Assembly (NCBI GenBank): GCA_963696295.1 | Contig: CAVOJR010000001.1 | Span: 1,376,001-1,440,000, forward strand | DNA length: 64,000 nucleotides | Source of the DNA: an uncultured Chlamydiae bacterium | GTDB taxonomy: Bacteria > Chlamydiota > Chlamydiia > Chlamydiales > JAJFMB01 | Direction of reading: 5' to 3' | Part shown: positions 1,447 to 58,933 of the stretch, in pieces | Numbering within the stretch: the stretch's first letter is position 1 | Layout: each line of letters starts with the position of its first letter | Notes under the pieces: model-generated | Told to the model about the DNA's origin: nothing | The model's input: the letters and a program-made list of their open reading frames with translations, nothing else | Databases searched by the model: none | Made by a program: the position numbers and the translations under genes

Positions 1447-1659
1447 CTATTGCCGCCTCTCGGAATCCTGGATGGGATAGGTGGTGTTGGCCGCGCGCTC
1501 AAGCTGCTGCCAATAGCCCGGATCGAACCACCCCCGGGTGCCGTTCCAGAAGTAGAACAGGGTTAAAAAACCCCAAATCGGCAGGATGATATAGGTCAAA
1601 ATGAGCCAGCGGGGCACTTTGTTGTGCGCCTCTTGAATGCCATATTCTTGTTCTTCCAT
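1447..1659 (-). CDS. cbb3 oxidase CcoP N-terminal-domain-only protein (no heme motif)
   Basis: GIQEAHNKVPRW plus a TM helix resembles the FixP/CcoP N-terminus (GIxEyDNPlPrWW). No CxxCH; last gene of the cco cluster. Confidence 0.7.
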   Translation of the reverse strand: MEEQEYGIQEAHNKVPRWLILTYIILPIWGFLTLFYFWNGTRGWFDPGYWQQLERAANTTYPIQDSERRQ

Positions 1660-1665
1660 AGCTTC

Positions 1666-2931
1666 TCACGGTTTTATTGTTTTCTTCCCTTCGATAATCA
1701 GTTTGGTCTGCACAGGATCCTTGCCAAGCCACCACGCTTCGGTCGGCGGGGTGATGCGGGTGCCTTTGGTCATCAAATATTGATAAAGGGCTTCAAATTG
1801 GCGGTTGGGGATGCCAGGGGATATTCCAAGCGACTTGCCGCTGGGGTCTTCATCGAAAAAGTGCTTTAAGGCGGGCATGATCGACCCCTTGCTCGCCGTT
1901 TTTGGGGACCAGAAATGCCCTTTGTGCCAGTCGCGGCTCGGCCGCTTTATGCCGACGCGGGAAAGATCGGGCCCGATCCTTCGCGTGCCGGGAAAGGTGA
2001 TTTCTTGAAAGATATACTCATTGGCAGAAGAGGGCGGGGCGGGATAGGAATCGGAGCCGTTCAAAACCACATCCTGCACTAACGTGCGCGTCTGATCCGT
2101 GTGGCAATAAAAGCACCCCTCTTTCGCAAAAAGGCGCTCACCTTCGTGAATGAGCTCTTGCCGCGAGCGAAAACCGAGCGGATTGCTCTTCAGCTCCTCC
2201 AAAGAGCTTATTTTTTTCCCTGCGGGATCATAGCGCCACCCCGTTTCCTGGCCGAAGGTGTAGCTTAAAACGCGATACTCTTCCGGGTTTTTGACAAAAA
2301 TGACGCCGGAGCTTTTATGATACTCCTGCTTCGGATCAAGTATCACATAATTTTTATCCACCCAGCTCTCTAAAACCCCTTCCGTAGTCGCCAGGGCAAA
2401 AGCTTCATTTTCCTGCGGATCATAGAGTTCCAAAATGGTAAAGCGGGGCAGGGTCAACTCCTCCTTTTCAAAACCGGGATGGGCGAGCCGCCACTCCTCC
2501 TGCAATTTTTTCCTTAAGGTATCCGCTGCCTGTTGGGCGTTTTTCTGCGGCTGGCGGAGCAGCAAAAGTCGGGAGGTCAGACGCAGCACCGGATCCTCTT
2601 TTCGCGTTATATAGGTCTCCAGATCAGCCGGCGCCACGATCCGGAAAGTATCGTTTTCATTAAATGAGAGCAGCGTGAAATCTTTTTTTAAGTGGTACGC
2701 AAACTCCAGGTTCTGCCCTTTAGTTGAAGAACTGCTGATGTAGAAATTCGGGTCGGCTATCGTGTACATCTGGACCTGATAGGCGCTCGACGGCGTGGTC
2801 CAGGAGGAATCGACATGCCTTGGCGCAATCAGGGTCACAAATATCGCCGTAGAAAAGAGCAAAATGATGCCGATAATGGTCAGAACGGCTGATTTTTCAA
2901 CTTTAAAGGGTGCCATGAGCTCGCCTTTCAT
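1666..2931 (-). CDS. ccoO: cbb3-type cytochrome c oxidase subunit II with a large insertion
   Basis: N-terminal TM, EGCFYCH, GTRRIGPDL and SIMP; directly follows ccoN. Alternative start at 2916. Confidence 0.85.
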   Translation of the reverse strand: MKGELMAPFKVEKSAVLTIIGIILLFSTAIFVTLIAPRHVDSSWTTPSSAYQVQMYTIADPNFYISSSSTKGQNLEFAYHLKKDFTLLSFNENDTFRIVAPADLETYITRKEDPVLRLTSRLLLLRQPQKNAQQAADTLRKKLQEEWRLAHPGFEKEELTLPRFTILELYDPQENEAFALATTEGVLESWVDKNYVILDPKQEYHKSSGVIFVKNPEEYRVLSYTFGQETGWRYDPAGKKISSLEELKSNPLGFRSRQELIHEGERLFAKEGCFYCHTDQTRTLVQDVVLNGSDSYPAPPSSANEYIFQEITFPGTRRIGPDLSRVGIKRPSRDWHKGHFWSPKTASKGSIMPALKHFFDEDPSGKSLGISPGIPNRQFEALYQYLMTKGTRITPPTEAWWLGKDPVQTKLIIEGKKTIKP

Positions 2932-4324
2932 AGGAGGGTTCTAATAAAATGGTGTTGTACATATTCAGCACAAACAAGATGTTGCCAAGCAAGATGATCA
3001 AACCGCCGACCGCCCGGAAGATCCAAGAAAGATGCATCCGGCTCACCGTCTCTAAAAAGGGCAATTCAGCCAAATGGCGATGGTATTCGGCGTAAGTCGA
3101 CCCCTCAGCCCACGTGGACCACATCATCCCTTGCCAAAAGCCGGCAATGGACAAAGTAAAGATAAATGGGAAAATGCCCCACACATTGAGGGAAAAGTGC
3201 CAGTCGGCCAGGCGGTCGGACCAAAGGGGCTTGTTCGTGATGGCGGGAATGACGAGATAAACCCCCGAAAAGGCGAAAAAGGAGAAAGTGGCGAAGAGGG
3301 AGATATGGGAATGGCCGATAATCCAATCGGTTTTCGAGGTGATCTCGTTCACATTGCGCAGCGCCTGCAAAGGGCCTTGTATACAGGTCATCAGGTAAAA
3401 AAGCACTCCCATGGTGGTGAAGCGCACCGCCGCGCTTTCCGTGTATTTTTCCCAATTGCCCTTTAGCGTGCCGAAAAGGTTTGTGATCACGGTCCAGACG
3501 GGGATGAAAAGCCAGATGGAGAAGATGATCGACACCGTCTGCAGCCACTGCGGCATCGGTCCGTGCATCATATGGTGCGCCCCTACCCAGGCATAGACGA
3601 AAGCGATAGACCAGAAGCCGATGAGCGAGAGGCGGTGGCTGTAGATCGGAGTATTGGTGAGTTTGGGCAGAACATAGTAGGCGATGCCTAAACCCATCGG
3701 CGTAAAAATAAGGCCGACCAGGTTATGCATATAGAAGAAATTGACGTTGACTCTCGATATCCCCCCGGGCACAAAATTGATAAAATAGACTCCGGCCAGA
3801 TAAGTGAAGGTGGTCCAGATTAAAGTGCCCATCACATACCAGAGGGAGACATATAATTTCTCAAAGCGCCTTAAGGCAATGGTGGCAAACAGGTTGATCA
3901 CAACCAGGATCCAGGCGATTGTGACCAAAGGCTTCGTCGGGATCCACCCCACCCAATTGGGCAGCTCGGCATACTCCCATCCGAAATTGGTGCCGAAAGG
4001 GTAGGAAAAGGTGGCGATAATCAGCGCAAACCACCAGATGGCGATGGAGCAGTAAGCCAGTCTCGGGCTCCAGAGCGGCACGCCGCACAATCTGGGAACC
4101 AGATAGTAAAATAAACCGATATTGGCCGACAGCAGCCACAGCCAGGCCACAGAGAAAACATGCACCGGGCGCAGGCGGCCGAAATGCAAATACTCCCCCG
4201 AAAAGTAATCGGGGAAGACAAAGGCGTTAAAGGCCAAAAATGTGCCGAGAGTCATCCCCACCACTAAAAAAAGCAGGGCGGGATAGATCATTAATTTTAC
4301 GGGAGTGTCATTGTACTTCGTCAT
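2903..4324 (-). CDS. ccoN: cbb3-type cytochrome c oxidase subunit I
   Basis: RLRPVH, YMHNLVG, YAWVGAHH and TDWIIGHSH supply all six His ligands and the helix-VII Tyr typical of C-family heme-copper oxidases. Confidence 0.92.
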   Translation of the reverse strand: MTKYNDTPVKLMIYPALLFLVVGMTLGTFLAFNAFVFPDYFSGEYLHFGRLRPVHVFSVAWLWLLSANIGLFYYLVPRLCGVPLWSPRLAYCSIAIWWFALIIATFSYPFGTNFGWEYAELPNWVGWIPTKPLVTIAWILVVINLFATIALRRFEKLYVSLWYVMGTLIWTTFTYLAGVYFINFVPGGISRVNVNFFYMHNLVGLIFTPMGLGIAYYVLPKLTNTPIYSHRLSLIGFWSIAFVYAWVGAHHMMHGPMPQWLQTVSIIFSIWLFIPVWTVITNLFGTLKGNWEKYTESAAVRFTTMGVLFYLMTCIQGPLQALRNVNEITSKTDWIIGHSHISLFATFSFFAFSGVYLVIPAITNKPLWSDRLADWHFSLNVWGIFPFIFTLSIAGFWQGMMWSTWAEGSTYAEYHRHLAELPFLETVSRMHLSWIFRAVGGLIILLGNILFVLNMYNTILLEPSYERRAHGTL

Positions 4325-7300
4325 TTAATTCAGCCTGTTTTTTTTGATATTGTTGGTAGATTGCCTGTTGTTTTTGCACCGATCGTTTAGCGTCTCCAAG
4401 ACCGGCGGCGATCTGGTGTTCCAGCTTTTGATAGGCGGCGAGTTCCGAATCGATTTTGCTCCTCTCAACCTCCCGCTCTGCTGAGGAGATCTTCCCTTCC
4501 GCCTGAATTTTTTCCTGTTCTAAAACTCTTTTCGACTGACCGATTTCCCGGATGAGTTCCTCGCTTGTCCGGCTGATTTGTTCCTCTTTTTCAGGGCTCC
4601 AGTTGAACTCTAAACGCCCCTCTTTCAAAGTGTACCGGCCGTCATTCAAGCGGATGATCTTTATCATGTTCTCCAGGGCGGCGTCGCTCGTCATTTTGCT
4701 GAGGACGCTCACGCCCATGTTTTGATAAATCTCCCGCTCCCGCTTCACTTCCTCTTTCAGATCATTCAGGAGCTGATCCGCCAAGCGAAATTTGGCGAGC
4801 CGTTCTTGTAATTTTATCTCTTGCGCATAGGCTTCTCCGGCCTTTTCAGGGGAAGAACGGGCAAGCTCCTCCCTCATCTGATGCGTTTGCCCGATTTTCA
4901 CTTGCACCAGTTCCATTTTTTTATACTCGCCGACCCGGGCCTCTTCAATCACGCGATCCGACCGGTTAAATCCCTGATAGAGGGCATTAAAGAGCTTGTT
5001 GCGCCGCTCCGGCTCTTCGCTTAAGGTGCGGATGAACATCACAAGCTGCATCCTTTGCAAGGAGCTGGTGAGATCCCCCCAGGGAGTCATGGCGGTGCCG
5101 GGCACGCCGAATTTGATCGAACGGAGCAGGCGCAAATCGTCGCGCGTTTCTATCCAGTTCAAATTAGTCAGCATGCGCGGTTTGGCCTCTTTCAAAAACT
5201 CGGCGCGCTGTCCGCTGCCCTCCCCTTCAGCACCGTGGCAGGCGGCGCAATTCATTTCAAAAAACTGCTTCCCTTCCAGTAAATTTTCCGGGGTGTAGTA
5301 TTCTTTTTTGATGTAATAGCCATATTTCTCTTCACCCGGGACGGGAGCTTGGCGTTTGTCAAATACATCATCCACAGAAGAATTTGGGACAGTGGGGTTT
5401 AGAGCGGCATAATACTCATGGCCCGTCGGCAGAAAGGCGAGCTTTCCCTTTTTTAATTTCTGATAATTCCCTTCTTCCCGCAGCTCCTCCAAAACTTTCT
5501 CAGGACTATATTGCCATTTCGGCACCTCCTCCTCGGAGCGGATAATCTGAGAACCAGGCAGCGTGGCAAACAGCCAGTCGACAATCTGGTTGGCCTGATC
5601 GCGGGTGATGACGGGAATGCCATCCGCCGTCGGTTTATCCGTGGCCACTTCCCCCCAAGGCGGCATCGGCGTGCCGTGCACTCCATGGATGATGGCCTGC
5701 ACTACCCTTTCTTTCGTCAAATTGCGCATAAATTGGGCGTTTCGCAAATTTTTCGGTATGGGGTAGATCCATTCCGCAACGGGGCCGTTGCCCTCCAAAA
5801 ATTCCCCGTGGCATTGGGCGCAATAAATTTTCACCGCTGTTTGCGGGTCAAAACCGCGCAGCTTCCAAATTTCATCCACCTCGTTTCGATTTTTTACGGA
5901 GAGTTGATCCAGCATATTTATCAGGGCATAAAACTTCGTGTCATCAAAGGGAAAGGCCGGCATGATGGACCTTGCCGATGTTGAGCCCGGATTGCGGAAA
6001 TGCTCCATCAGCTCCTCGTCGCTGCGATAAATGCCGGACCAATTCGGGCGCGGACCCACCAGCCGCCCAAGGCCATACTCCTGAATATAAACCAGCAAGA
6101 CCCTCTTCACCCGCTTTTTCCACGCTTCCAGCCCGGCTAGCGCTTTGGCTTTTTCCACCGGATTTTTGGCGAGCCTTACTTTTTCCGTAAATTCGTAATT
6201 TTTGGCGCGGAAAGCGTATTTGAAATTGGAATAGTACGATTCGATCGTATCGGGAAATTTAGCGTCGATCTCCTCTAAGAGAGAATCTTTCCGGACCCCA
6301 TCGACAATCCGCTCATCGATCTCTTTCGCATGCTGATCGATCGCTTTGACAATGTCCGACCCCTTGATTTCTTCCGGAAACAGCTGAGAAAACCACTGCT
6401 TTTCCTTGTAAACTTCAGAGAAAGGGGGCTTCGCTCCTTTTTCGATCTTAAAACCTGCATCCGATTCAAAACCTTTTAAGCGATGGCAGGCCGCGCACCC
6501 TTCCGTCGCAAACACCGTCATGGCGAACCGCAAATCTTTCATCTCGACAGGCGTGACAGGCTTCTCCCAAGGCAGCTTCTTACCCTGCTCCCATTGTTGT
6601 ATGGCGATTTTTTTCTCGGTGGCCGACTTGACCTGGCTATCGCTCCTTTGGCCGAGCAAATAGGTGACAAGCCCTTCCAGCTCTTCGTGATCGAGATGGT
6701 AGTTTGGCATGGTGGAGGTCTTTAAGTCCCATTGAGGCCAAACAATCTTTTCCTTAATGTACCAGGGATACCCCGCCCCTTCATTGGTCAGCTCCGGACC
6801 GACGCCGCCGCGGGCAAAGCCGCTGATGCGGTGGCAGGCGTAGCAGGCTTGCGAAAGAAAAAGGCTTTTTCCCTGGTGATAGCCGGCTGTCAGGTAGTCG
6901 ATATCCGATTGCATCGAGTTGATCACTTTTTGATCCGATGCGGTGTAAGAAAACGTTTTTTCCGTGTCTTTAATATGCTGTTTGACCGCTTCTTCCAGAT
7001 TGATTTGGCTCAATTTGACAAATATTGTGCCCGTGGCGGCATCGTCGTTCAGATGAGCCTCTAAAAACTTATCGAGGGCAGCCATAGAAGGGGGCTGTTT
7101 TTCCAGCTCTCCGGCCAGCCCGGGAGAGCCTAAACTGCCTGCGATTTGCCGGTTAATCCTCTCTAAGGGGGCCTCTGCTTTTAAAAAGCTCAATTGCGAT
7201 TCGAAAGCTTTAATTTGCGCTGCGGAGAGGGAATAATTTTGCGTTTGCTTCTTTAACTGCTCTTCCGTTTTTTCCAGGCCCTCTCTTTTGATTTGGTCCT

Positions 7301-8228
7301 GCAACTGCCAAAGGGAAAGCAGCTCTTCTTTTTCCCTTTCAAAGCCGGTATTAATCGCCTGCGCCTTCTCTTGCCCCCTTTTGGCGAGCACTTGAACGCC
7401 GCTCACGCTGTTTATCAAAGCCCCTTCGCTCGACTGGTGGCATTGCACACACTTGGCCTGCATCAAAGATCCCACCAAAATCGGAGTGGTTTGAAAGAGC
7501 AGTTCATTGCCCGGTTTTGAATTAAACACCGTGGCAAATTGGGGATCGTTTAAATAATCTCTTTCCAGAAATTGGGGCCTCGGTCCCATAAATTCCACTT
7601 CATATGTCCCGTCGAAGACCGGACCGTGGGCTTTATCGGTTGTCAAACCCCGGCCGTTTCCGCCGTGGCAGGAGGCGCAGCCATAATCGTCAAGGGGGTG
7701 GTATTCGAAGGGGCGCGTCTCCCGGCCTATTAAAGGATGCATCTGCAGCACTTTGGCGACATCGTAAGTGTGGTCGCCGACTTGGGCTGTCTTTAAAGCC
7801 TTTAAGCGGTCGGCTTCGCTTGAGTCTCCAAGCTCTTTAATCTTTTGATCCAAACGCAAAAAGACATAATTTTCGTTGGGGATTTTGAGCGGCCAGCCCC
7901 GCTCATCCAGCTTCAGGTTGCCGTTGACGTCGTAGGCGAGCTTGGTGGGGGAAAAGTCGGGAAGCTGCAAGGCGACGTGGCAGGAGATGCAGCGGTCGAT
8001 CTTTTCCGGCCCTTTTTCCGGATTCAGGATGACAATTTGCTTCACTCCGAATTGAAATTCCGGCGGGGGCTGCCCTGTGTAGGTGGAGCGGAACTCCTCC
8101 AAAGCGACATAATCTTTTTGATAGATGCGGTACTCCGGAAAAATCTCCCGGTACAAAAAAACGCCGAACAGGGCCGATACAATGACCCCAAGAAAAATCA
8201 AAACTATTTGGTACAAATCAGATCGCAT
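4308..8228 (-). CDS. Membrane-anchored multiheme (7x CxxCH) cytochrome c, 1306 aa
   Basis: N-terminal TM; CISCH, CASCH, CVQCH, CYACH, CAACH, CAQCH, CAACH; several MP axial-Met motifs; coiled-coil-like C-terminus. Confidence 0.9.
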   Translation of the reverse strand: MRSDLYQIVLIFLGVIVSALFGVFLYREIFPEYRIYQKDYVALEEFRSTYTGQPPPEFQFGVKQIVILNPEKGPEKIDRCISCHVALQLPDFSPTKLAYDVNGNLKLDERGWPLKIPNENYVFLRLDQKIKELGDSSEADRLKALKTAQVGDHTYDVAKVLQMHPLIGRETRPFEYHPLDDYGCASCHGGNGRGLTTDKAHGPVFDGTYEVEFMGPRPQFLERDYLNDPQFATVFNSKPGNELLFQTTPILVGSLMQAKCVQCHQSSEGALINSVSGVQVLAKRGQEKAQAINTGFEREKEELLSLWQLQDQIKREGLEKTEEQLKKQTQNYSLSAAQIKAFESQLSFLKAEAPLERINRQIAGSLGSPGLAGELEKQPPSMAALDKFLEAHLNDDAATGTIFVKLSQINLEEAVKQHIKDTEKTFSYTASDQKVINSMQSDIDYLTAGYHQGKSLFLSQACYACHRISGFARGGVGPELTNEGAGYPWYIKEKIVWPQWDLKTSTMPNYHLDHEELEGLVTYLLGQRSDSQVKSATEKKIAIQQWEQGKKLPWEKPVTPVEMKDLRFAMTVFATEGCAACHRLKGFESDAGFKIEKGAKPPFSEVYKEKQWFSQLFPEEIKGSDIVKAIDQHAKEIDERIVDGVRKDSLLEEIDAKFPDTIESYYSNFKYAFRAKNYEFTEKVRLAKNPVEKAKALAGLEAWKKRVKRVLLVYIQEYGLGRLVGPRPNWSGIYRSDEELMEHFRNPGSTSARSIMPAFPFDDTKFYALINMLDQLSVKNRNEVDEIWKLRGFDPQTAVKIYCAQCHGEFLEGNGPVAEWIYPIPKNLRNAQFMRNLTKERVVQAIIHGVHGTPMPPWGEVATDKPTADGIPVITRDQANQIVDWLFATLPGSQIIRSEEEVPKWQYSPEKVLEELREEGNYQKLKKGKLAFLPTGHEYYAALNPTVPNSSVDDVFDKRQAPVPGEEKYGYYIKKEYYTPENLLEGKQFFEMNCAACHGAEGEGSGQRAEFLKEAKPRMLTNLNWIETRDDLRLLRSIKFGVPGTAMTPWGDLTSSLQRMQLVMFIRTLSEEPERRNKLFNALYQGFNRSDRVIEEARVGEYKKMELVQVKIGQTHQMREELARSSPEKAGEAYAQEIKLQERLAKFRLADQLLNDLKEEVKREREIYQNMGVSVLSKMTSDAALENMIKIIRLNDGRYTLKEGRLEFNWSPEKEEQISRTSEELIREIGQSKRVLEQEKIQAEGKISSAEREVERSKIDSELAAYQKLEHQIAAGLGDAKRSVQKQQAIYQQYQKKQAELNDEVQ

Positions 8229-8230
8229 GC

Positions 8231-9556
8231 CTAATGCCTAATATAGGTTTCTGTCCAGGGCCAAATCCAGTGCCAGTTGGCTCCTCGAAAATAGGTGCCC
8301 ACGATAATCATCAATCCCTGCCACGTCATGAAGGCCGTATAGAGAAAAATCGCGACATAGCGGCTCCTATGAAACCAGACACCCTGCCCATGCGGATTGC
8401 GGTCGAGATAGGGAATGGACATCAGCCCTAAAACAAAAATTAAGGGCATCATCACGCCGCCCCAGAACGCATCGTAGGCCACCATCTCCTGCAATCCCAA
8501 AAAATACCAGGGAGCCTTGGAGGGGTTGGGAGGTTTGCTCGGATTGGCGGGCTCTTCCAGCGGCGCATCAATAAATGAGAGGAGGAGCACCAAAGCTGTG
8601 GTAAATAAAAACGCAACCAATTCAGCTCTTAAGAGATGCGGCCAGGTAAAGACGAAATTGTAAGGGCCCTTATCCACTGTGGGACAAGTGCCGCGCACAA
8701 GCTCCATCAAACCATACGTGCGCTTTACTCCCGGGGCAAACGATTCTTTGGTGTCGGAGCGCTGCACCACGCGGTAGGGGTCGGGGCGGATTTTATCGGG
8801 CGGCCGCGACAACCCCCCGTCTTTGCGGATGCGCCAGAAATGAACGCCGATCAAAGTCCCTGCCAATAGGGGCAGCAAAGCCACATGCAGCACGTAAAAG
8901 CGGATCAGCGCATCTTGCCCCACACTCGTTGAGGCGAGAAGCATGACGCGGTTGATGTTGTACTCAAAACCGGGCAGATTAGGCGCGTAGCCGGCAATAT
9001 TCGTTCCCACCGTGATAGCCCAGAACGCGAGCTGATCCCAAGGCAAAAGATAGCCGGTGAAGGAGAGCAAAAGGGTGAGCAGCATCAAAAAAACCCCCAC
9101 CACCCAGTTAAAGCGGCGCTCTCCCTTATAGGATCCCGTATAAAAAACCCGGGACATGTGCAGAAAAACAAAAAGCACCATCAAGTGGGCGCTCCAGCGG
9201 TGCATGTTGCGGTACATATTGGCAAATGGAGTCGTGTCCTGCCAGTCCTTCATAATGTCGTAGGCGCGGTCCTCGGCCGGAATATAATAAAACATCAGAA
9301 CAATGCCCGTGAAGACCAGAATCAAAAATAAACTCATGGTGATCGCGCCAAGCCCCAAAGTATAAAAGGGGTCGAGAGAATGTTTGTGGCATTTCACCGG
9401 ATGGAAATGGAGGAAGAAGTTTTTAAACACCACTTCCGAGCGGTCGACATCGTTGTTGGGGTAGTTGTGCCTGAATATCGAGCGCACAAATTCCTTGGGC
9501 AGATTCAGCAGATGCTGGCCAAAAGATTCCCTCTCCTTTCCGCTAAAGACAGCCAT
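8231..9556 (-). CDS. petB: Cytochrome b (b6 + subunit IV-like fusion) of a Rieske/cytb complex
   Basis: RNMHRWSAH..LHMSR, GYLLPWDQ, FYVLH..GVHF; Qo motif variant APWYF. Confidence 0.88.
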   Translation of the reverse strand: MAVFSGKERESFGQHLLNLPKEFVRSIFRHNYPNNDVDRSEVVFKNFFLHFHPVKCHKHSLDPFYTLGLGAITMSLFLILVFTGIVLMFYYIPAEDRAYDIMKDWQDTTPFANMYRNMHRWSAHLMVLFVFLHMSRVFYTGSYKGERRFNWVVGVFLMLLTLLLSFTGYLLPWDQLAFWAITVGTNIAGYAPNLPGFEYNINRVMLLASTSVGQDALIRFYVLHVALLPLLAGTLIGVHFWRIRKDGGLSRPPDKIRPDPYRVVQRSDTKESFAPGVKRTYGLMELVRGTCPTVDKGPYNFVFTWPHLLRAELVAFLFTTALVLLLSFIDAPLEEPANPSKPPNPSKAPWYFLGLQEMVAYDAFWGGVMMPLIFVLGLMSIPYLDRNPHGQGVWFHRSRYVAIFLYTAFMTWQGLMIIVGTYFRGANWHWIWPWTETYIRH

Positions 9557-9566
9557 TATATCGCTC

Positions 9567-10088
9567 CTAAATCACCTGAGATTGGGGGGCAAACCATGCG
9601 GCATTCCAATCAAGTGTTGTTTTTGACTTATCCACCATAATGTCTCCTGAAGCCCCTTTATAAACGTGAAAATAAACCAAAGGCAGAGGCGCCGGGCCTC
9701 CGGTATTCTTCCCATGCCGGTCGTAAGTGGAGCCGTGGCAAGGGCAGGCATAGCCGGTTTCCACCATATTCACCGTGCAGCCCAAATGGGTGCAGACCGC
9801 CGTCTGGACTCTGACTTTGCCTTCGCTCGTCTCGACAAACACCTTCTGCTTGGGATCGAACACCTTTCCCTCTTTCGATAAAAGCTCATCGGGGCGGCCG
9901 AGGGAAAACACGCTGGGCGGGATCTTCATCGCATTGGGATAGAGAAAACCCAGGACGGAGATATTCACCAGCTGCCCGACGCCCAAAAGACACGCTCCGA
10001 CCCCGAGGATGGCTAGAAAGGTGCGCCGGGTAATTTTCGGGTCATTACTGTCGGGATCGACATTTAACGAGTTGCGGTACTTTGGCAT
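9567..10088 (-). CDS. Rieske [2Fe-2S] subunit, Tat-exported
   Basis: TRRTFL twin-arginine motif, CTHLGC, CPCHGS and GPAP. Confidence 0.92.
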
Positions 10089-10223
10089 CTATTTCTCATC
10101 CTCTCGAAACATTTGATATTTGACATCCTCGGAATCTTCAAATTGCCCTTTTTGAAAATAATAAATATAAACGACTATCCCTGCAAGAGCCATCATCAAA
10201 GTACTGCCAAAAACCCAGATCAT
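10089..10223 (-). CDS. ccoS: CcoS-like cbb3 oxidase maturation protein (44 aa, absent from ORF track)
   Basis: MIWVFGSTLMMALAGIVVYIYYFQKGQFEDSEDVKYQMFREDEK*: a TM helix plus GQF(E/D)D. It fills the gap between the flanking genes almost exactly. Confidence 0.75.
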   Translation of the reverse strand: MIWVFGSTLMMALAGIVVYIYYFQKGQFEDSEDVKYQMFREDEK

Positions 10224-10224
10224 A

Positions 10225-12063
10225 TCAGCCGATCCACCTGAAAGAGTAATTCATCACATCCATCGTAACGGCCTGCGTCGGGCACTTTTCCGCGCACAAA
10301 CCGCAGCGGATGCAAAGGTCCTCGTCTTTCAGCATGATGGAGCCCATGCCATCCAGTTCCTCCGGTTCCATTTCCGAAGAGTCGACGCCGTAAAAGTTAT
10401 CGACCGCCCGGCGCAGATTGCCCTCTCCATTGTCGAGGTTGGCGTGGCTGACCGGAATCAGCTTCAGACAATTCGCCGGACAGACATCGACGCACCCGTT
10501 GCATTTGATGCACAGCGTTCCGTCAAAAACGGGGCTGACATGGCATTGCAGGCAGCGATTCGACTGTTGATGAGCTTCTTCTTCCGTGTAATTATTTTCC
10601 ACCATATTGAAGTTTTTGATCCGCACATCCACCGGCTGCATGGTGGGAAGGGCCCATTTGGTGCGCAAGTAGGTTTTATCCCGCATCGGAGATATTTCCG
10701 TGAACTCGCCATAAAATTCCCGGTAGGGCCTCGCGCCCGTCAAATCCTCGTCGATCGCACGCGCCGCCTCCTGCCCGTGCCGGACGGCCGAGATAAAAAG
10801 CGCCGGCCCGAAAGCCGCATCGCCCCCCGCGTAAATCCCCTTGACCGACGTTCTTCCCGTCCCCCGCTCGCTTTTGACAACGCCCCGGTCCAACACGAGC
10901 TCACTCATTTTATCCCACCCTTTGAAAAGGCTCATATCCATTTGCTGTCCAATCGCTAAAGCGAGAGAATCGCACGGGATGACAAATTGCGTATCGGGGA
11001 CAAGCTCCGGCTTGAAGCGCCCCGTGAAATCAAAAAGGGAAGAGATCTCCTGAACTCTAAGCCCGCAAATCTTCCCGTCTTCTCCCCGTTCGACCGCTAT
11101 CGGAGCCAGGCGGTTCCTGATGGCAATACCCTCTTCCAGGCCGTCTTCGATCTCAAATTCATCAGCCGTCTGCTCGTCGCGCGTCTCCAGGCAGACCATC
11201 GTCACCGATTTAGCGCCATTGCGGACCGAGGTGCGGGCCACATCGAAAGCGACGTTGCCCCCGCCGATCACTACCAGCTGCTCGCCTATTTTCCACTCCT
11301 CATCGGCGCACATCACGCGCAAATACTCAATCCCCCGGATCACATCGGGAGCGTCGGCGCCTTTAATCGGCAAATCACGCGATTTCCAAAGCCCCGGCCC
11401 CAAGAACACCGCATCAAAATCGCGCTGTAAATCGGTCAGAGTCTTATCGCGCCCGATTTTGACATTGTAGTGGATTTTAGCGCCCAGATATTCGATAGCG
11501 GCGCACTCGTTGATCGCCACCTTGTTTTTCAAGCGATAAGAGGGCACGCCATAAGTGAGCATGCCGCCCGGCATGCGCATCATCTCAAACACTTCCACTT
11601 CGTACCCTAAGCGCAAAAGATCGTGCGCGCAGGTCATCGAAGCGACTCCGGCGCCCACGCAGGCTACTTTCAGGCCGTTTTTCACCGGCTTGGTCGAGCC
11701 CCTGGCATAACTCATCTCCAAAGACCTGATGTGCGCCTCCCGGCTCATGCCGTACCATTCGTTCAGGAAGCGCTTTTGGGCGCGGATCGTCAACGTTTTG
11801 TCCACCCGGTCGCGCCGGCAGGTCAGCTCGCAGGGCGCGCCGCAAATGACCCCGCAAATCGAAGCGAACGGATTCGGCCCCCTGGCGATCTTATACCCCT
11901 CCAGATAGTTGCCCGAATGGAGGGCGAGCATATAGCCGCGCGGGTCGGTATTGACGGGGCAGCCGTCGCGGCAGTCGATCTGCCGGATATAATAGTCGAG
12001 ATCGGGGATGACGACGTCGTAGATGGGTTTATAGACCCGAACGATATCTATTTCATCTGCCAT
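10225..12063 (-). CDS. GltD/NfnB/SudA-like FAD-dependent NAD(P)H oxidoreductase with extra C-terminal 2x[4Fe-4S] ferredoxin domain
   Basis: CRDGCP, NPFASICGVICGAPCE, GAGVAS, GGMLTYGVP, GGGNVAFD, RCLQC, CIKCNGCVDVCP and CIRCGLCAEKCP. Confidence 0.88.
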   Translation of the reverse strand: MADEIDIVRVYKPIYDVVIPDLDYYIRQIDCRDGCPVNTDPRGYMLALHSGNYLEGYKIARGPNPFASICGVICGAPCELTCRRDRVDKTLTIRAQKRFLNEWYGMSREAHIRSLEMSYARGSTKPVKNGLKVACVGAGVASMTCAHDLLRLGYEVEVFEMMRMPGGMLTYGVPSYRLKNKVAINECAAIEYLGAKIHYNVKIGRDKTLTDLQRDFDAVFLGPGLWKSRDLPIKGADAPDVIRGIEYLRVMCADEEWKIGEQLVVIGGGNVAFDVARTSVRNGAKSVTMVCLETRDEQTADEFEIEDGLEEGIAIRNRLAPIAVERGEDGKICGLRVQEISSLFDFTGRFKPELVPDTQFVIPCDSLALAIGQQMDMSLFKGWDKMSELVLDRGVVKSERGTGRTSVKGIYAGGDAAFGPALFISAVRHGQEAARAIDEDLTGARPYREFYGEFTEISPMRDKTYLRTKWALPTMQPVDVRIKNFNMVENNYTEEEAHQQSNRCLQCHVSPVFDGTLCIKCNGCVDVCPANCLKLIPVSHANLDNGEGNLRRAVDNFYGVDSSEMEPEELDGMGSIMLKDEDLCIRCGLCAEKCPTQAVTMDVMNYSFRWIG

Positions 12064-12171
12064 GTTCAAACCGCCTTCAGAAAAGTGAACTGTAGCAAAA
12101 CAAACAGATTTTTTAAAGACAAATGGGATTAATTAATATTTCATAAAATCATAGACTGCGCCAAAAAAATA

Positions 12172-12200
12172 TTGCATTAATATCCCATTTTTGGGATAAT
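12172..12200 (+). promoter_or_regulatory. Sigma70-type promoter with overlapping operator palindrome for the TA pair
   Basis: TTGCAT-17nt-GATAAT, with inverted repeat TATCCCA-tttt-TGGGATA at 12181-12198. Confidence 0.6.
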
Positions 12201-12216: not shown

Positions 12217-12597
12217 ATGAGTGTGATAAAGCCGATTGCCTGGATTGGATCAAGCAAAAAAAACTTCATGGCATTTCCTCAGGATATCCGAAAGGAGATG
12301 GGACACGCTCTATATATTGCTCAAAAAGGAGGAAAACACCGAGACGCTAAACCTCTCAAAGGATTTGGAGGCGCTAGCCTCTTGGAAGTTGTGCAAACTA
12401 ACGGGGATGGGACATTTCGAACTATGTACACTGTGCAGATGGAAGAAGCTGTTTATGTTCTCCATGCTTTTCAAAAGAAATCAAAAAGCGGAATCAAAAC
12501 CCCAAAAGAAGATATGGAACTTGTGGATCAAAGGTTAAAAGAAGTACAAAAGAAACATAAAGAATGGTCTATTAACTGCAAAAAAGGGGTCAAATGA
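12217..12597 (+). CDS. Type II TA toxin, RelE/ParE (Gp49/HigB-like)
   Basis: KPLKG, GTFRTMY and VYVLHAFQKKS; toxin-first order. Confidence 0.85.
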   Translation: MSVIKPIAWIGSSKKNFMAFPQDIRKEMGHALYIAQKGGKHRDAKPLKGFGGASLLEVVQTNGDGTFRTMYTVQMEEAVYVLHAFQKKSKSGIKTPKEDMELVDQRLKEVQKKHKEWSINCKKGVK

Positions 12598-12980
12598 AAA
12601 AACAGCGAGAGTCAAAAGATCTAAACATCGAAGTCGGCAGCGATAATATTTTTGCTGATATTGGTGTTGAGAATCCTGAAGAGGAACTCACTAAGGCAGA
12701 ACTTGCTTGGGAAATTGAGCAAACTCTCAAGAAAAAAAAGCTGACTCAAGCAAAAGCTGCAAAACTTATGGGCATCAATCAACCTAAGGTGTCCGCATTG
12801 CTCCATAGAAAACTTGATGGATTTTCTGTTGAACGCCTCATCCATTTTTTGACAGCTTTGGGACAAGATGTTGAAATTACAGTTAAACCAAAACCACGCA
12901 ATCGTCGAAATGCTCGTGTCAGTGTCTGCGGCTCACAACGAACCTATGGAAGATCAGCAATCGCAGCAAAGGCTCACTGA
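12594..12980 (+). CDS. XRE-type HTH antitoxin (HigA-like)
   Basis: GSDNIFADIG, LTQAKAAKLMGINQPKVSAL and FSVERL; ATGA overlap with the toxin. Confidence 0.85.
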   Translation: MKKQRESKDLNIEVGSDNIFADIGVENPEEELTKAELAWEIEQTLKKKKLTQAKAAKLMGINQPKVSALLHRKLDGFSVERLIHFLTALGQDVEITVKPKPRNRRNARVSVCGSQRTYGRSAIAAKAH

Positions 12981-13004: not shown

Positions 13005-13835
13005 ATGAGCAAAAAAAGGCATTGCAACACACTTACCATCGCGGGATTTGACGGCAGCGGCGGCGCCGGGATTCAGGCTGACCTGAAAACCTTTTCCGCT
13101 TTAGGATGCTATGGTATGACCGTGCTGACCGCCCTCCCGGTGCAAAATACGAGGGGCGTTCAATTCATCTATGCCATTCCCGACTCATGCATCGAAGAAC
13201 AGCTCAACGCCATCCTGGAAGACATTGAAGTGGACGCCTTTAAAATCGGGATGCTGCACCGCCCGGAAGTGGTCCGCATCGTGGCCAAACTGCTGGCGGG
13301 GCAACCGAAGATCGTTTTAGACCCGGTCATGATAGCCAAAAGCGGCGATGGGCTTCTGACTGTGGAGGCCATTGAAACTATGAAAGAGCTGTTATTTCCC
13401 CAGGCGGCTTTGATCACCCCCAATCTGCCCGAAACGGCAGCCCTGTTAGGGCGGGAGGTAGGCACTAAAGCCGAGATGGAACAGGCCGCCCTTGATCTGA
13501 TCAGAATGGGGCCAAAAGCCGTTGTGGTGAAAGGGGGGCATTTATCTTCAGAGACGTGCGACGACTGCCTTTGCCTTTCCGGCGGAGAAATTTATTGGTT
13601 TTCCGCTCCGAGAATCGCCACAAAAAATACGCATGGAACGGGATGCACTTTTTCCGCCGCCGCCACGGCTTATTTATCCAAAGGGATGAATGTCGTAGAA
13701 GCTGTGGAAAGGGCAAAACAATACCTGCATGGCTGCCTGGAAGCGGGAGCCGGATTCACCGTTGGCAGAGGTTTTGGCCCGGTGCATCACTTTTTTTCCC
13801 TTTGGAAGGAGGAAATGCCCCCTTTCAGCGTATAA
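13005..13835 (+). CDS. thiD: HMP/HMP-P kinase
   Basis: LTIAGFDGSGGAGIQADLKTF, VLDPVM, TPNLPE and HGTGCT. Confidence 0.95.
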   Translation: MSKKRHCNTLTIAGFDGSGGAGIQADLKTFSALGCYGMTVLTALPVQNTRGVQFIYAIPDSCIEEQLNAILEDIEVDAFKIGMLHRPEVVRIVAKLLAGQPKIVLDPVMIAKSGDGLLTVEAIETMKELLFPQAALITPNLPETAALLGREVGTKAEMEQAALDLIRMGPKAVVVKGGHLSSETCDDCLCLSGGEIYWFSAPRIATKNTHGTGCTFSAAATAYLSKGMNVVEAVERAKQYLHGCLEAGAGFTVGRGFGPVHHFFSLWKEEMPPFSV

Positions 13836-14740
13836 ATTTCCAGGAGGGGAAAGCGCTCCTTAAGCAGCTTGGCAGCCTGAAGACTTCTAATTCCCCGCTC
13901 GCAATAAAGTATCGTTACTTTACCTTTCGGAACTTGTATCTCTTCCCTGGCATCGATGAGCTGCAGGTCCACTTTTTCTGAAAGCATTTGGCGAACTCTT
14001 TCTGCGCTGATTTCCAGACTGTTTTCCTGAGGAGGACCTATTTGATAAAGCCGGGTCGTCCAGCTCAAAGCGTCGATCTTCAGCAATTTTCCCTTAAGTG
14101 TCTGCCCGGCGTCCAAAATCACTTTCATGGCTTCCAGGGCCTGAATGGTGCCGATCATGCCCGGCAGCGGGGCGATCACGCCTGCCGCGGCGCAAGAGGA
14201 CCCCTGCACAGGGGGAACGGGATATAAGGAGCGATAATCCGGTTTTCCATGAAAGAGGGCCGCCTGGCCTTCAAAATGAGAGATGGAACCATACACGAAA
14301 GGTTTGCAAAGCGCGAGGCAAGCATCGTTTATAGCGTAGCGCGCAGGAAAATTATCGGTTGCATCAATCACAACATCATAATCTTGAAGGAGTTCTTGCG
14401 CGTTATACTCAGTTAAAAAGACAGCTTTGGCAGCAAAGGCCACATGAGGATTTAGCATAGAGAGCCTCTCTTTTGCCGCCTCGCCTTTCAACCGGCCAAT
14501 ATCTTCCGAATGGTATAAAATTTGCCTCTGCAGATTGCCGAGCTCAATGCGGTCAGGATCGATAATGCCTATTCGGCCAATGCCGGCCGCCGCCAGATAT
14601 AATAAAGCCGCGCACCCCAATCCTCCCGCACCGACGACCGCCACTGAAGCCGATTTCAGCTTTCTCTGCCCCTCCAGGCCGATTTCACATAATTTGATTT
14701 GACTCGTATAGCGGCAAACTTCAGTCTCACTTAAGTCCAT
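13787..14740 (-). CDS. thiF: ThiF/MoeB adenylyltransferase with short rhodanese-like C-terminus
   Basis: GQRKLK, VVGAGGLG, NLQRQ, DATDN, and C-terminal YCERGIRS and LKGGI. Start taken at MDLSE. Confidence 0.85.
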   Translation of the reverse strand: MDLSETEVCRYTSQIKLCEIGLEGQRKLKSASVAVVGAGGLGCAALLYLAAAGIGRIGIIDPDRIELGNLQRQILYHSEDIGRLKGEAAKERLSMLNPHVAFAAKAVFLTEYNAQELLQDYDVVIDATDNFPARYAINDACLALCKPFVYGSISHFEGQAALFHGKPDYRSLYPVPPVQGSSCAAAGVIAPLPGMIGTIQALEAMKVILDAGQTLKGKLLKIDALSWTTRLYQIGPPQENSLEISAERVRQMLSEKVDLQLIDAREEIQVPKGKVTILYCERGIRSLQAAKLLKERFPLLEIYTLKGGISSFQREKK

Positions 14741-15332
14741 AAAAGATCCTTCTGAACTTCTCTGTTTCACTTAAGGGATCTGCGGCACTGCTGATCGCTG
14801 AGATCACCGCAATGCCCGCCACGCCTGTTTTAGACACGTTTTCTACATTGTGCTCATTGATGCCGCCAACGGCCAGCAGAGGAATTTTGACTTCGCGGCA
14901 AACTTGCTCCAGAAGGGCAAGACCAAGTGGAGGACCTGTCTTGATTTTGCTTGAAGTTGGATAAATATGCCCTAAACCAATGTAATCAGCCCCCTCCCTT
15001 TCCGCCCGTTTCGCCTGCTCCAAATTTGAAGCGGTAGCTCCGATGATTCTATTTCCCAGCAAGTGGCGCGCCTTAATGATCGGCAAATCGGTTTGCCCCA
15101 AATGAACACCCGCCGCATCAATTGAGAGCGCAATATCCACGCGGTCATTGATTATCAAAGGAACGGAAAAACCGCGGCACATTTCTGCCAGCTCGCAAAC
15201 CAGAGCATACACTTCCCGGGTATAACTCCCTTTATGTCTGAACTGAATGGTGTCAATGCCTCCGAGCAGGGCCTTTGAGGCGAGTTCTAAAGAGGCAGGC
15301 GTGTTGATGATCAGCTGTACTCCTTTAATCAT
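14727..15332 (-). CDS. thiE: Thiamine-phosphate synthase
   Basis: QFRHK, IINDRVD, GVHLGQTD, DYIGLG and AVISAI. Confidence 0.9.
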   Translation of the reverse strand: MIKGVQLIINTPASLELASKALLGGIDTIQFRHKGSYTREVYALVCELAEMCRGFSVPLIINDRVDIALSIDAAGVHLGQTDLPIIKARHLLGNRIIGATASNLEQAKRAEREGADYIGLGHIYPTSSKIKTGPPLGLALLEQVCREVKIPLLAVGGINEHNVENVSKTGVAGIAVISAISSAADPLSETEKFRRIFYGLK

Positions 15333-15847
15333 TGGAACGCTCTAATAGCTGCAACTCCATAAGCGCCGGCTTCCAGGCAACTTCTGAAATTTAAGGGGGT
15401 GATCCCGCCCACCGCTAAAACCGGTATAGAGAGCTTCTGCGCCACTTTTTCCAAATGGCAAAGACCTTGAGGTGGACCCGTTTTAGAGGGGGTTTCAAAA
15501 ACAGGCCCAAAAAGCAGGTAATCGGCGCCCTCCCCTTCCGACTTTCGGGCCGCTTCCAAACTATGCACGCTCACCCCGACAATCATAGAGTTTTTCAGTT
15601 TCTTTGGAATTTGGGGCGATAATCCCATTTCCGGAAGATGCACACCGTCCGCTTCTACCGCAAGCGCGATGTCTATTCTATCGTTGATAGAAAAAAAAAT
15701 CCCCCGGTCTGCGGTAATTTTTCTCAAATCGAGTGCAAGCTCCCATAACTTTCTCGCCTCCATTGTTTTGTTTCTCAACTGGAGGGCCCAAGAGAGATCT
15801 TTATCTATATGGCCATCAGTTATTTGCATCAATTTGGGAATTTTCAT
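15329..15847 (-). CDS. ThiE-fold protein, probable thiazole tautomerase TenI-like
   Basis: GVHLPE, GVSVHS and [11 protein letters not shown]. Second ThiE-fold gene, next to thiG as in ThiO-type operons. Confidence 0.65.
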
Positions 15848-16614
15848 ACACTGATCATTCCTTCTACGGGACTGGAGGCCGCCGCATACCGTTTTGTGGG
15901 AATTCGCCCCGCTTGATAAGCCAGCCTGCCCGCCTGCGAGGCCAGCTTCATGGCTAAAGCCATCGATACCGGCCGCTCGGCCTGGGCTATCGCCGTATTG
16001 ATCAAGACGGCATCAAAGCCAAGCTCCATAGCTTTAGCCACGTCTGAAGCCGTGCCAATCCCCGCATCGAGAATTAGGGGAATGGCGATTTGCTCGCGCA
16101 GAATTTTAAGCGTATAAGGGTTGAGAAGGCCCATGCCGGAACCTATCGGCGATCCCAATGGCATGACTGCCGCGCATCCCATACCTTCCAGCTTTTTGCA
16201 CGTGACCAAATCATCGTTACAGTAAGGAAGCACCACAAATCCCTCTCTGGTTAGCACATCGGCCGCTTTTAATAACTCCACCAGATCGGGGAATAGCGTC
16301 TTATCGTCGCCGATCACTTCCAGCTTTATCCAGTTTGTCTCTAACGCCTCCCGGGCGAGCTGCGCCGTTAACACCGCTTCTTTTGCCGTAAAGCATCCGG
16401 CTGTATTCGGCAGCAGACGGATCCCTTTCGATTTGAAATAAGGGAGCATCCCCTCCATTTGTGAATGCACCGCGCTCGTGCGCCGCATGCTGACGGTGAC
16501 TATTTCCGTTCCGCTCGCCTCAATGGATTGGATCAGCGTCTCCTGATCCGGATAGAGCGCAGAACCGAGCAGCAAGCGGGATTGAAACGTTTGATTTCCA
16601 AGGATAAAGTCCAT
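15844..16614 (-). CDS. thiG: Thiazole synthase
   Basis: [26 protein letters not shown] and DAGIG. Confidence 0.96.
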
Positions 16615-16617
16615 TTT

Positions 16618-16818
16618 CTAGCCTCCCGAAACCGCGTGCACAATTTCTATTTGATCCCCTTCTGCAATCTTCGTCGATCCCCAATCGGACCTGAAGACGA
16701 TTTGGCCGTTCACCGCCACAGCAACTCCCGCAGTTTCAATGGATTGCTCCTTCAAAAGGAGTTCCAGGGTTTCTGAATCGTCAAATAAAACATTTTGTCC
16801 ATTAAGTTGAATGCGCAT
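16618..16818 (-). CDS. thiS: Sulfur carrier protein
   Basis: 66 aa, VAVAVNG, C-terminal GG. Confidence 0.93.
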   Translation of the reverse strand: MRIQLNGQNVLFDDSETLELLLKEQSIETAGVAVAVNGQIVFRSDWGSTKIAEGDQIEIVHAVSGG

Positions 16819-20439: not shown

Positions 20440-20443
20440 AGAT

Positions 20444-21994: not shown

Positions 21995-22134
21995 GATTGT
22001 CCTAGTTTTTTTTTGGTTAATCCTCTTGTAATACAAAAAAGGTTAAATACTCTAGTGTCATTTTACCTTTTGAAATAAATTTCCCTCACTGCTATACTTA
22101 CCCCCTTAATTTTCTAACTTGAAAGGAGTTATTG

Positions 22135-36246: not shown

Positions 36247-36639
36247 ATGGTTATCGAGAAAACAGCCGAGCAAGCATTATCCCAATTGATCAATCAGAAG
36301 GAAGCTCAGATTGCTGTGGGTGATTTTCTGATCTCAATCCGCATCTTTGACAACGCTTCAAAACTCACTTTCTCAACTCCCGTTTTTATGGGAGAAAAAT
36401 ACATTCCTCTGAGCGTAAGAGGGTGTCTCTTCGAGAAATTCCCAGAGCAGACCATTAAGACCTACTTAAGTGTCGACGAGCTCAACTATAGAGTTAATTT
36501 ACACTACCTGGGCACGACGGCTGGTTTGGATTTTGGGAGGTTCAAAGATCTGTTGGAAGAGTTTGCGCAAATTGCGGATTTGTGGAGCAGTTGGTTAGAC
36601 GATCACGATCGGCGCGATTTTGTTTACGTGCGCAAATAA
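36247..36639 (+). CDS. Hypothetical protein
   Basis: About 130-aa acidic ORF after an AT-rich promoter region. Confidence 0.65.
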   Translation: MVIEKTAEQALSQLINQKEAQIAVGDFLISIRIFDNASKLTFSTPVFMGEKYIPLSVRGCLFEKFPEQTIKTYLSVDELNYRVNLHYLGTTAGLDFGRFKDLLEEFAQIADLWSSWLDDHDRRDFVYVRK

Positions 36640-58712: not shown

Positions 58713-58723
58713 AACAATGAAGG

Positions 58724-58752
58724 CTAACGGTCGATGTATAGTTGACCGTTAG
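58724..58752 (+). terminator. Hairpin after the first OMP gene
   Basis: CTAACGGTC...GACCGTTAG inverted repeat. Confidence 0.5.
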
Positions 58753-58933
58753 AAGCTCCATTTTCTAGGAGATTATGGAAGTAATAAAGAATAACAAAAT
58801 GGGTTTGAAAGAGAAGTTTTTGATTAGACGACAGCAAACCCAGATGAATTACACTAGTCTTCGCCAATATAAGGCCTAAATGGAAGACTGGTAAAAATTT
58901 TGAAAATTAAACAATAAATTAAGGAGCTTTAAC

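Follow-up and report, generated by a model that had tools for sequence, protein, structure and literature searches.

Operon structure and conservation

We analyzed a stretch of 64,000 nucleotides (referred to here as the window) from an uncultured Chlamydiae bacterium of the order Chlamydiales, corresponding to positions 1,376,001 to 1,440,000 of contig CAVOJR010000001.1 (assembly GCA_963696295.1). Our subject is an operon that unites a Rieske/cytochrome b pair, a multiheme cytochrome and a cbb3-type oxidase with a flavoprotein. It consists of eight open reading frames (ORFs) that run on the minus strand from position 12063 to 1447 in the order flavoprotein, ccoS-like peptide, Rieske protein, cytochrome b, seven-heme cytochrome, ccoN, ccoO and ccoP stub (Table 1), with successive intergenic gaps of 1, 0, 10, 2, -17, -29 and 6 nt. 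All eight genes are single copy in this genome, and no assembly frameshift was found in the operon itself. An earlier note on this DNA had described eight co-oriented, near-contiguous genes of these families, and the coordinates, gaps and profile matches agree with that description. The operon is real, intact and conserved.

Table 1. Genes of the operon, in 5' to 3' order, and the putative promoter upstream; positions are those of the window.
Feature	Size	Position	Strand	Basis
FAD/Fe-S oxidoreductase (flavoprotein)	612 aa	10225..12063	-	Pyr_redox_2, Fer4_20, two Fer4; alternative TTG start at 12069
ccoS/FixS-like peptide	44 aa	10089..10223	-	Pfam FixS, E 3e-4, 20.9 bits vs cut-off 23.1
Rieske protein	173 aa	9567..10088	-	Twin-arginine signal-anchor; Ser120/Tyr122 high-potential signature
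Cytochrome b6 fused to subunit IV	441 aa	8231..9556	-	Profile matches, alignment
Membrane-anchored seven-heme cytochrome c	1306 aa	4308..8228	-	Exactly 7 CxxCH
CcoN, cbb3 catalytic subunit	473 aa	2903..4324	-	COX1/ccoN profile
CcoO, monoheme	421 aa	1666..2931	-	FixO, E 1e-20
Heme-less CcoP stub, N-terminal membrane part only	70 aa	1447..1659	-	FixP_N, E 1.8e-5, 24.8 bits vs 24.9
Putative housekeeping-sigma promoter		12089..12117	-	TTTAAA, 17 nt, TACAGT, extended -10 TG

To place the operon in its order, we surveyed 61 genomes, its own included. Cytochrome b was found in 23 of them; the flavoprotein occurs in 22 of these 23 and in none of the 38 others, weaker matches at E above 1e-36 being excluded. 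In G020, the sole cytochrome b genome without it, the cytochrome b gene starts at base 3 of its contig. CcoN-type matches were obtained in all 23 genomes and in G013, whose contig ends inside the seven-heme gene, so that 24 of the 61 genomes carry the operon at least in part. It is thus widespread and not peculiar to the genome analyzed here. A CcsA-family protein is encoded by 21 of the 23 cytochrome b genomes (the two without it are 81% and 57% complete) and by 3 of the 38 others. At the level of loci, 29 non-redundant chlamydial loci were retained after 4 duplicates had been dropped. In all 20 with enough flank (at least 3 kb upstream and at least 9 kb downstream), the flavoprotein gene is present on the same strand, and ccoN is present in 19 of them; a chance grouping of the genes is therefore excluded. 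These counts are descriptive and not tests, since kin are not independent of each other. Together with the matching trees described below, they bear out the co-conservation of the flavoprotein with the Rieske and cytochrome b genes, on which the earlier note had made its proposal depend.

The operons of relatives show some variation. Five loci have an additional ccoS-like peptide, encoded between ccoO and the ccoP stub (L032:14131-14361, L035:13827-14018, L053:17054-17212, L039:8403-8564 and L058:15104-15307). Insertions at three further loci (L127:1846-5397, L045:7676-8947 and L037:5177-5668) comprise two ORFs between the flavoprotein and ccoS, one of them an aminotransferase, an opposite-strand glycosyltransferase, and an IS200 transposase before ccoN. 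The flavoprotein is in pieces in L041:7484-9329, as are ccoN/ccoO in L043:14565-17249, probably through assembly frameshifts.

Upstream of the first gene, the pattern TGnTAnAnT, which was picked after inspection of the same upstream sequences, occurs within 120 nt in 13 of 25 chlamydial loci, the window included (shuffle mean 1.7, maximum 6). A generic promoter scan returned 11 sites against a shuffle mean of 8.7 and did not list the putative promoter of Table 1. The upstream regions contain no FNR- or Rex-type box, and no convincing terminator candidate was singled out.

Cytochrome b and the Rieske protein

Cytochrome b was aligned with 88 relatives covering at least 80% of its length (28 chlamydial and 60 other). 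The heme ligands His119, His133, His224 and His239 are invariant, and two further features are present in all 88 relatives, namely, the Qo motif APWY (A348-P-W-Y351) and a fifth histidine, His50. In PMC12954380, AlphaFold3 models place an extra b heme at the cytochrome b dimer axis of two Kuenenia complexes, with His43 or His62 as ligands. For comparison we compiled an anammox-type set of ten loci; the five genomes that supplied them had been selected by a match to the hydrazine synthase family. In the alignment, the counterparts of His50 are residue 43 of the 256-residue and residue 62 of the 275-residue b6 proteins of this set, which are the numbers given in PMC12954380, and Arg244/Lys245 align with Arg247 and Arg266/Lys267, whose numbers also match its extra-heme site. 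The cysteine that binds heme cN is present in all 10 anammox-type rows and in 0 of the 88 relatives, the position being occupied by Gly68 here. At the inner site, 84 of the 88 relatives retain Glu312, with which a glutamate aligns in all 10 anammox-type subunits IV. From motif spacing, we take Glu312 to be the counterpart of the heme cN ligand of PMC12954380 and of the inner-site aspartate of bc1 complexes.

The structural model of cytochrome b (predicted template modeling score of 0.77) matched canonical cytochrome b folds only. We also modeled a cytochrome b dimer with flavoprotein residues 505-612, which gave a score of 0.39, against 0.00 for the best of three controls. Of 157 solved pairs, 116 reach this mark, as do 2 of 215 mismatched ones, in a calibration that is only roughly apt, and at scores of up to 0.60 the calibration holds only 18 of the 157 solved pairs together with both mismatches. 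The runs share at least 56% of contacts, and the predicted local distance difference test (pLDDT) value of the partner is at least 63. The models lend weak support to a binding of the flavoprotein to cytochrome b.

Two cysteines on the predicted cytoplasmic side of cytochrome b are specific to the chlamydial rows: Cys56, which is followed by a conserved His57, is found in 28 of 28 chlamydial rows and Cys291 in 23 of 28, and neither occurs in the 60 others.

The serine of the Rieske signature is present in all 92 rows. It is paired with a tyrosine in 27 of 27 chlamydial relatives, and the 65 others have Ser with either Phe (46) or Tyr (19). The two best matches in the Protein Data Bank (PDB) are Rieske domains from Kuenenia (9rk3 and 9rk4), for which potentials of +335 and +303 mV were measured, and from the signature we infer a high-potential cluster here as well. 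The quinone is probably menaquinone, because the genome encodes MenB of the classical pathway; a search of the genome for PF02621 of the futalosine route gave no match. The genome further encodes TatC and a CcsA-family protein.

The flavoprotein

The flavoprotein combines a GltD-like body with a C-terminal 2x[4Fe-4S] domain and is predicted to carry four clusters in addition to flavin adenine dinucleotide (FAD); its best PDB matches are 9bov and 8oh5. The cysteines for the four Fe-S clusters are conserved among the 76 aligned relatives that span at least 85% of the protein, with Cys504 and Cys507 predicted to complete the distal cluster. At the FAD-proximal cluster, bifurcating NfnB/NfnL have a glutamate ligand. 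The residue here is Lys97, which is shared by all 76 relatives and all 9 anammox-type rows and corresponds to Lys170 of StnC in a gapless alignment. As far as the accessible part of PMC10482914 goes, the FAD of StnC is non-bifurcating, and its lysine is contrasted with the NfnB glutamate. Since Lys97 equals Lys170 of this non-bifurcating enzyme, the sequence points to a non-bifurcating FAD here as well.

Residues 291-293 are CLE, where StnC, NfnA and the anammox-type relatives have YRR. The motif is C/S/T-L-E in 74 of the 76 relatives and YRR in one, and all 9 anammox-type rows have YRR. In DsrL, according to the portion of PMC7596348 available to us, YRR goes with NADP(H) and a non-YRR motif with NAD(H). 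Because CLE replaces YRR, as in NAD-preferring DsrL, the cofactor is by analogy likely to be NAD(H); the remark in the earlier note that CLE hints at a different nucleotide preference thereby gains backing. In the C-terminal ferredoxin domain, the heme-facing Arg550 of the anammox model corresponds to Lys593, and a lysine or arginine is found there in 76 of 76 relatives. The alignment ruled out Arg503 as an equivalent of the anammox Arg511.

The earlier note had also considered ferredoxin as an electron partner of the flavoprotein and had mentioned the bifurcation proposed for anammox bacteria. We set aside flavin-based bifurcation and a soluble ferredoxin as the leading explanation on account of Lys97 and of the ferredoxin-like domain, which bears the residue placed at the heme by the anammox model and is predicted to face cytochrome b. 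A soluble-ferredoxin link is not indicated.

The last glycine of the FAD-binding motif (residue 142) is a serine in 25 of 25 chlamydial rows and a glycine in 51 of 51 others.

The seven-heme cytochrome and the cbb3 oxidase

The seven-heme protein starts with three predicted bis-His hemes, followed by four His/Met domains, the last two of which are CcoP-like; the ccoP profile matches residues 976-1071 below its cut-off. His164, His177, His201, Met756, Met855 and Met1047 are present in 49 of 49 relatives and Met507 in 42 of 49, which suggests three bis-His and four His/Met hemes. Chlamydia-specific insertions account for about 700 residues, the non-chlamydial versions being 549-634 residues long.

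In CcoN, residues His55, His200, His250, His251, His338, His340 and Tyr244 are conserved in 38 of 38 relatives, Tyr244 being presumably the tyrosine that precedes the CuB His-His pair by six residues. The protein scores 277 bits against a ccoN cut-off of 583. CcoO has CcoO chains as its top fold matches (E 0.007-0.06) and carries an extra beta-rich domain of about 200 residues (approximately 60-260) between anchor and heme domain, modeled mostly with a pLDDT above 85. This insertion, which is found in chlamydial CcoO, the proteins of other phyla having 189-195 residues, gave no usable Atlas match and no Foldseek match at E 0.001. The CcoP stub lacks CxxCH and is conserved as the last gene, and the ccoS-like peptide has the same position in relatives. 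A stand-alone diheme CcoP, which is not universal in the cbb3 family, is not found here. As to assembly genes, ccoG, ccoH and ccoI are missing from the operon, the ccoG-like and DsbD_2-like proteins of locus L092 found no match in the genome, and a search for copper-insertion genes gave five P-type ATPase matches.

Among 52 CxxCH-bearing open frames of the genome, no credible c-type cytochrome was found besides the seven-heme protein and CcoO; of the other frames, 10 were scanned, with matches to unrelated families for 9 and none for 1, and the remainder were assessed by visual inspection. In the absence of a further such cytochrome, electrons most likely pass from the Rieske protein to the oxidase directly, and the III-IV supercomplex that had been proposed is likely as a hard-wired unit. 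The genome also encodes Nqr, Nuo, a bd oxidase and a second, bo3-sized oxidase of the COX1 family. The further idea of microaerobic respiration draws on the reputation of the cbb3 family only and is retained as no more than that; according to the accessible text of PMC8407424, low O2 did not induce cbb3 in two acidobacteria, which may differ in operon type.

Distribution beyond Chlamydiae

We examined the best 80 of 583 confirmed stretches from a wide genome scan, among which the closest named records are metagenome-assembled genomes of Parachlamydiaceae and Waddliaceae. Of the 67 non-chlamydial loci in this set, 56 have a same-strand flavoprotein and 17 have ccoN, and for the 42 with enough flank, the respective numbers are 40 and 13. 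Gene order in Kiritimatiellae is nearly chlamydial. The same core occurs with an aa3-type oxidase in L067, with subunits of the type II dimethyl sulfoxide reductase family in L097 and L110, and with NapA/Fdh-like molybdoenzymes in L080 and L088, all partner families scoring below curated cut-offs. The molybdoenzyme genes are of the periplasmic type and lie directly downstream of the core (L097:11478-19237, L110:11557-19438, L080:11537-17242 and L088:11535-17015).

Trees were built by quick and FastTree methods. Each of the seven groups read from the cytochrome b tree is recovered in the flavoprotein tree as one side of a branch, with support of 99-100, 5 rows being ungrouped. In the cytochrome b tree, the chlamydial clade (support of 100) is joined to a molybdoenzyme-rich clade, whereas in the flavoprotein tree it is joined to Kiritimatiellae; long-branch warnings apply to both placements.

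Proposed mechanism and alternatives

None of the cofactor ligands is missing and the genes are inherited as a set, and on these sequence grounds we consider it rather probable that NAD(H) is wired to the low-potential chain of cytochrome b. This wiring is more likely than the direction of flow that we favor. As to direction, our preferred reading, to which we assign slightly less than an even chance, is that the products of the operon form a single membrane machine in which NADH is burned with O2 by way of a quinone cycle of the machine itself. According to this scheme, the cytochrome b dimer would oxidize menaquinol at its outer (APWY) site. One electron would travel from the high-potential Rieske cluster through the seven-heme cytochrome, the last two domains of which would stand in for CcoP, to CcoO/CcoN and O2, with no soluble carrier being needed, and the second would cross the membrane via hemes bL and bH. 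One flavoprotein would dock on the cytoplasmic dimer axis by its C-terminal ferredoxin domain. NADH would be oxidized at the non-bifurcating FAD, and its electrons would pass through the four Fe-S clusters to the extra heme b held by the His50 residues of both subunits and on to heme bH, so that quinone reduction would be completed at an inner site that contains Glu312 and is devoid of heme cN. The net result would be a non-pumping NADH dehydrogenase together with complexes III and IV, a short NADH-to-O2 chain, complete in itself, beside Nqr, Nuo, bd and bo3.

We ranked NADH oxidation first for three reasons: (i) Glu312 outlives heme cN; (ii) an open inner quinone site would, as PMC12954380 admits in its accessible part, win over NAD(P)+ reduction; and (iii) 14 of the 24 operon-bearing genomes lack a NuoD match, in a search of the relatives that covered NuoD and not Nqr. 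A number of observations weigh against this ranking. The histidine of bc1-type inner sites is an arginine here (Arg244, as in b6), and 86 of the 88 relatives have a larger residue in place of the glycine next to the heme cN position on its C-terminal side, which could mean that the site is blocked. Arg244/Lys245 are also conserved in plant b6 and hence do not discriminate, Arg511 of the anammox flavoprotein corresponds to Gly523, and the extra dimer-axis heme is itself a modeled feature. The flavoprotein is absent from L116 and L119, two of the 42 non-chlamydial loci with enough flank, although His50 is kept there, and in acidobacteria its gene lies at the far end, after ccoO. Of the 11 genomes in which NuoD was matched, 10 carry the operon too, and Nqr and Nuo of the present genome conserve more energy per NADH; it is on this energetic ground that PMC12954380, in its accessible part, rejects NADH oxidation for Kuenenia. 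Finally, a Ser/Tyr high-potential Rieske protein is superfluous for NADH oxidation in a menaquinone organism, and the combination of the two is, as far as that text goes, its main argument for uphill NAD(P)+ reduction.

The same complex might also run in the opposite direction, as an O2-pulled bifurcation, a close rival that we nevertheless rate as distinctly less than even. For every two menaquinols oxidized, two electrons would go to O2 and two to NAD+, the latter, of very low potential, moving from bL to bH, the His50 heme, the Fe-S wire and NAD+. Nqr or Nuo would then re-oxidize the NADH and pump ions, in replacement of the inner quinone site of the Q-cycle. This is what PMC12954380 proposes for anammox bacteria in the part accessible to us, and it is in keeping with the Ser-Tyr Rieske signature of all 27 chlamydial relatives in combination with a menaquinone pathway, with the uniform loss of the heme cN cysteine, and with partners that, where identified, are oxidase-like or putative high-potential enzymes. 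Rough bookkeeping with assumed potentials makes the overall reaction downhill by 14-56 kJ per NADH, and NAD+ is the easier uphill target, as for DsrL-1 in the available portion of PMC7596348. However, the same potentials put the quinol step, taken by itself, close to equilibrium (-8 to +12 kJ), Glu312 is retained in most relatives, heterotrophic symbionts are presumably not short of NADH, and 14 of the 24 operon genomes have no NuoD match, subject to the limit on Nqr given above. If NAD+ is reduced, the operon may stand for a class of complex III, widespread and so far undescribed, whose Q-cycle delivers its low-potential electrons to NAD+ via a fifth, dimer-axis heme, a proposal that we advance only with caution. 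It is equally doubtful, though conceivable as part of the same proposal, that this core serves in other phyla as a plug-in module for aa3 oxidases, periplasmic molybdoenzymes and HAO-like proteins.

Two further explanations appear less probable. The low score of the complex model, the terminal position of the flavoprotein gene in acidobacteria, the inserted genes that part it from ccoS in L031 and L045, and its absence from L116 and L119 would all suit a conventional complex III that runs the Q-cycle and is hard-wired to cbb3; the flavoprotein would then be a co-regulated helper, loosely attached or separate and outside steady turnover, be it a redox valve, an aid in O2 stress or start-up, or the partner of a soluble carrier. 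Such a loose role is difficult to reconcile with strict co-occurrence and matching trees, with the strict conservation of His50 and of a basic residue at 593, both located at the heme of the anammox model, and with the co-migration of the Kuenenia subunits, as cited in the accessible part of PMC12954380, and we regard it as improbable. Very unlikely, in our judgment, is a reverse Q-cycle, in which a periplasmic donor would feed the multiheme cytochrome and the electrons would go in part to O2 and in part be pushed to quinone and NAD+ by the proton gradient. PMC4122944, in its accessible part, calls APWY characteristic of reverse-running complexes, citing a hypothesis for Geobacter, and the periplasmic molybdoenzymes that some relatives pair with the core are possible donors. 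In the present genome, however, the L110 molybdoenzyme found no match, the survey of CxxCH-bearing frames yielded no further credible cytochrome, and the sole partner within the operon is an O2 sink. The reverse electron flow envisaged in the earlier note is thus unlikely as far as flow from the periplasm is concerned, the high-potential chain ending in an O2 sink and no periplasmic donor having been found.

Other features of the window

Upstream of the operon lies a divergent pair of Gp49-like and HTH_37 genes (12217-12980, plus strand) that resembles a toxin-antitoxin module and is preceded by a perfect 7-bp inverted repeat at 12181-12198, a possible operator. It is followed by a thiamine-synthesis-like cluster (13005-18792) with genes of the ThiD, ThiF, DAO and NMT1/THI5 families according to Pfam, as well as two ThiE-like ORFs and one ThiG-like ORF judged by eye only. 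The window also contains two sulfatases (18976-22036), tatC (36542-37504), two Pom outer membrane protein genes (57447-60226) and a UPF0137 gene; the Pom and UPF0137 genes mark the host as chlamydial. The threonyl-tRNA synthetase gene (42067-43982, minus strand) is split into three ORFs in three frames, probably as a consequence of assembly frameshifts.

Comparison with known systems

Parts of the operon are already in print. The accessible part of PMC9816063 assigns CcoN/O to the last common chlamydial ancestor and describes PetBD as kept in most descendants of a later ancestor and lost in Chlamydiaceae; it treats the two as separate complexes and mentions there neither a shared operon nor the flavoprotein. 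Cytochrome b of Waddlia chondrophila and Parachlamydia acanthamoebae is placed in group A2 together with Kuenenia in the available text of PMC3509893. An APWY clade, no member of which had been characterized as of 2014, is defined in the accessible part of PMC4122944, and both of its marks, the APWY motif and a Ser-containing Rieske signature, are present here. The accessible text of PMC5600118 notes that oxidoreductase genes often lie near such cytochromes b (subfamily G/G') in large operons of unknown function; our protein fits its subfamily G', long cytochromes b in large conserved operons, by description only. The cbb3 link, the seven-heme wire, the His50 site and the cofactor motif are not described in the accessible parts of PMC4122944, PMC3509893 and PMC5600118. 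In the literature searched, which took in few subscription papers, no account of the operon as a whole came to light. Such operons may be described in Kartal 2013, de Almeida 2016, ten Brink 2013 and Dibrova 2013, which we know through citation.

With cbb3 (family C) oxidases and the bc1-cbb3 supercomplexes (for example, PDB 8smr), the system shares the CcoN ligands, CcoO and a CcoS-like peptide, and III-IV coupling as such is known; it differs in that CcoP is a heme-less stub, CcoP-like domains are found on the seven-heme protein, and CcoO has an extra domain. The flavoprotein has the fold, cluster ligands and proximal lysine of StnC (8oh5) and of NfnA in NfnABC (9bov), but a NuoG-like part is lacking here. 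With DsrL it shares the C-terminal 2x[4Fe-4S] domain, and its non-YRR motif is like that of NAD-preferring DsrL-1; its partner here is a membrane cytochrome b, and there are no dsr genes in the operon (the genome was not searched for dsrAB).

The closest systems are the anammox NAD(P)-linked Rieske/cytochrome b clusters, and the likeness pointed out in the earlier note is borne out as kinship by the Rieske PDB matches and the anammox-type alignments. In the accessible part of PMC12954380, Kustd1480-1485 and Kuste4569-4574 of Kuenenia stuttgartiensis comprise the same cluster of Rieske protein, cytochrome b/subunit IV, multiheme cytochrome c and FAD/four-cluster oxidoreductase. The APWY motif, the dimer-axis histidine, the proximal-cluster lysine, the inner-site glutamate and the high-potential Rieske signature are shared, as is a multiheme cytochrome c in place of c1/f, here with seven CxxCH motifs. 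In contrast, anammox bacteria have a split b6 and subunit IV with a heme cN CxGG motif, YRR and an HAO-like octaheme sink, whereas the present system has a fused protein without the heme cN cysteine, CLE and a cbb3 O2 reductase. Judged by sequence, the complex would work like the anammox complexes; lacking the split cytochrome b, heme cN and YRR, it is a variant rather than a strict member.

The role of the oxidoreductase in anammox-type complexes is an open question, and their extra heme rests on a 2025 model. It is in this context that the chlamydial operon matters, and its value lies in the class rather than in the present copy, which is ordinary for its group. The predicted ligand of the extra heme is invariant across relatives from about ten phyla, even without heme cN. 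The operon merges chlamydial complexes III and IV, so far listed apart, into one inherited unit, and it would be a counter-example to APWY as a mark of periplasm-driven reverse flow. If the wiring is as we propose, either direction would be a new way to run a complex III, with NADH feeding the inner quinone site or NAD+ replacing it. Since the module is paired here with an easily assayed sink, O2, its O2-respiring carriers would offer the first practical test of the anammox proposal.

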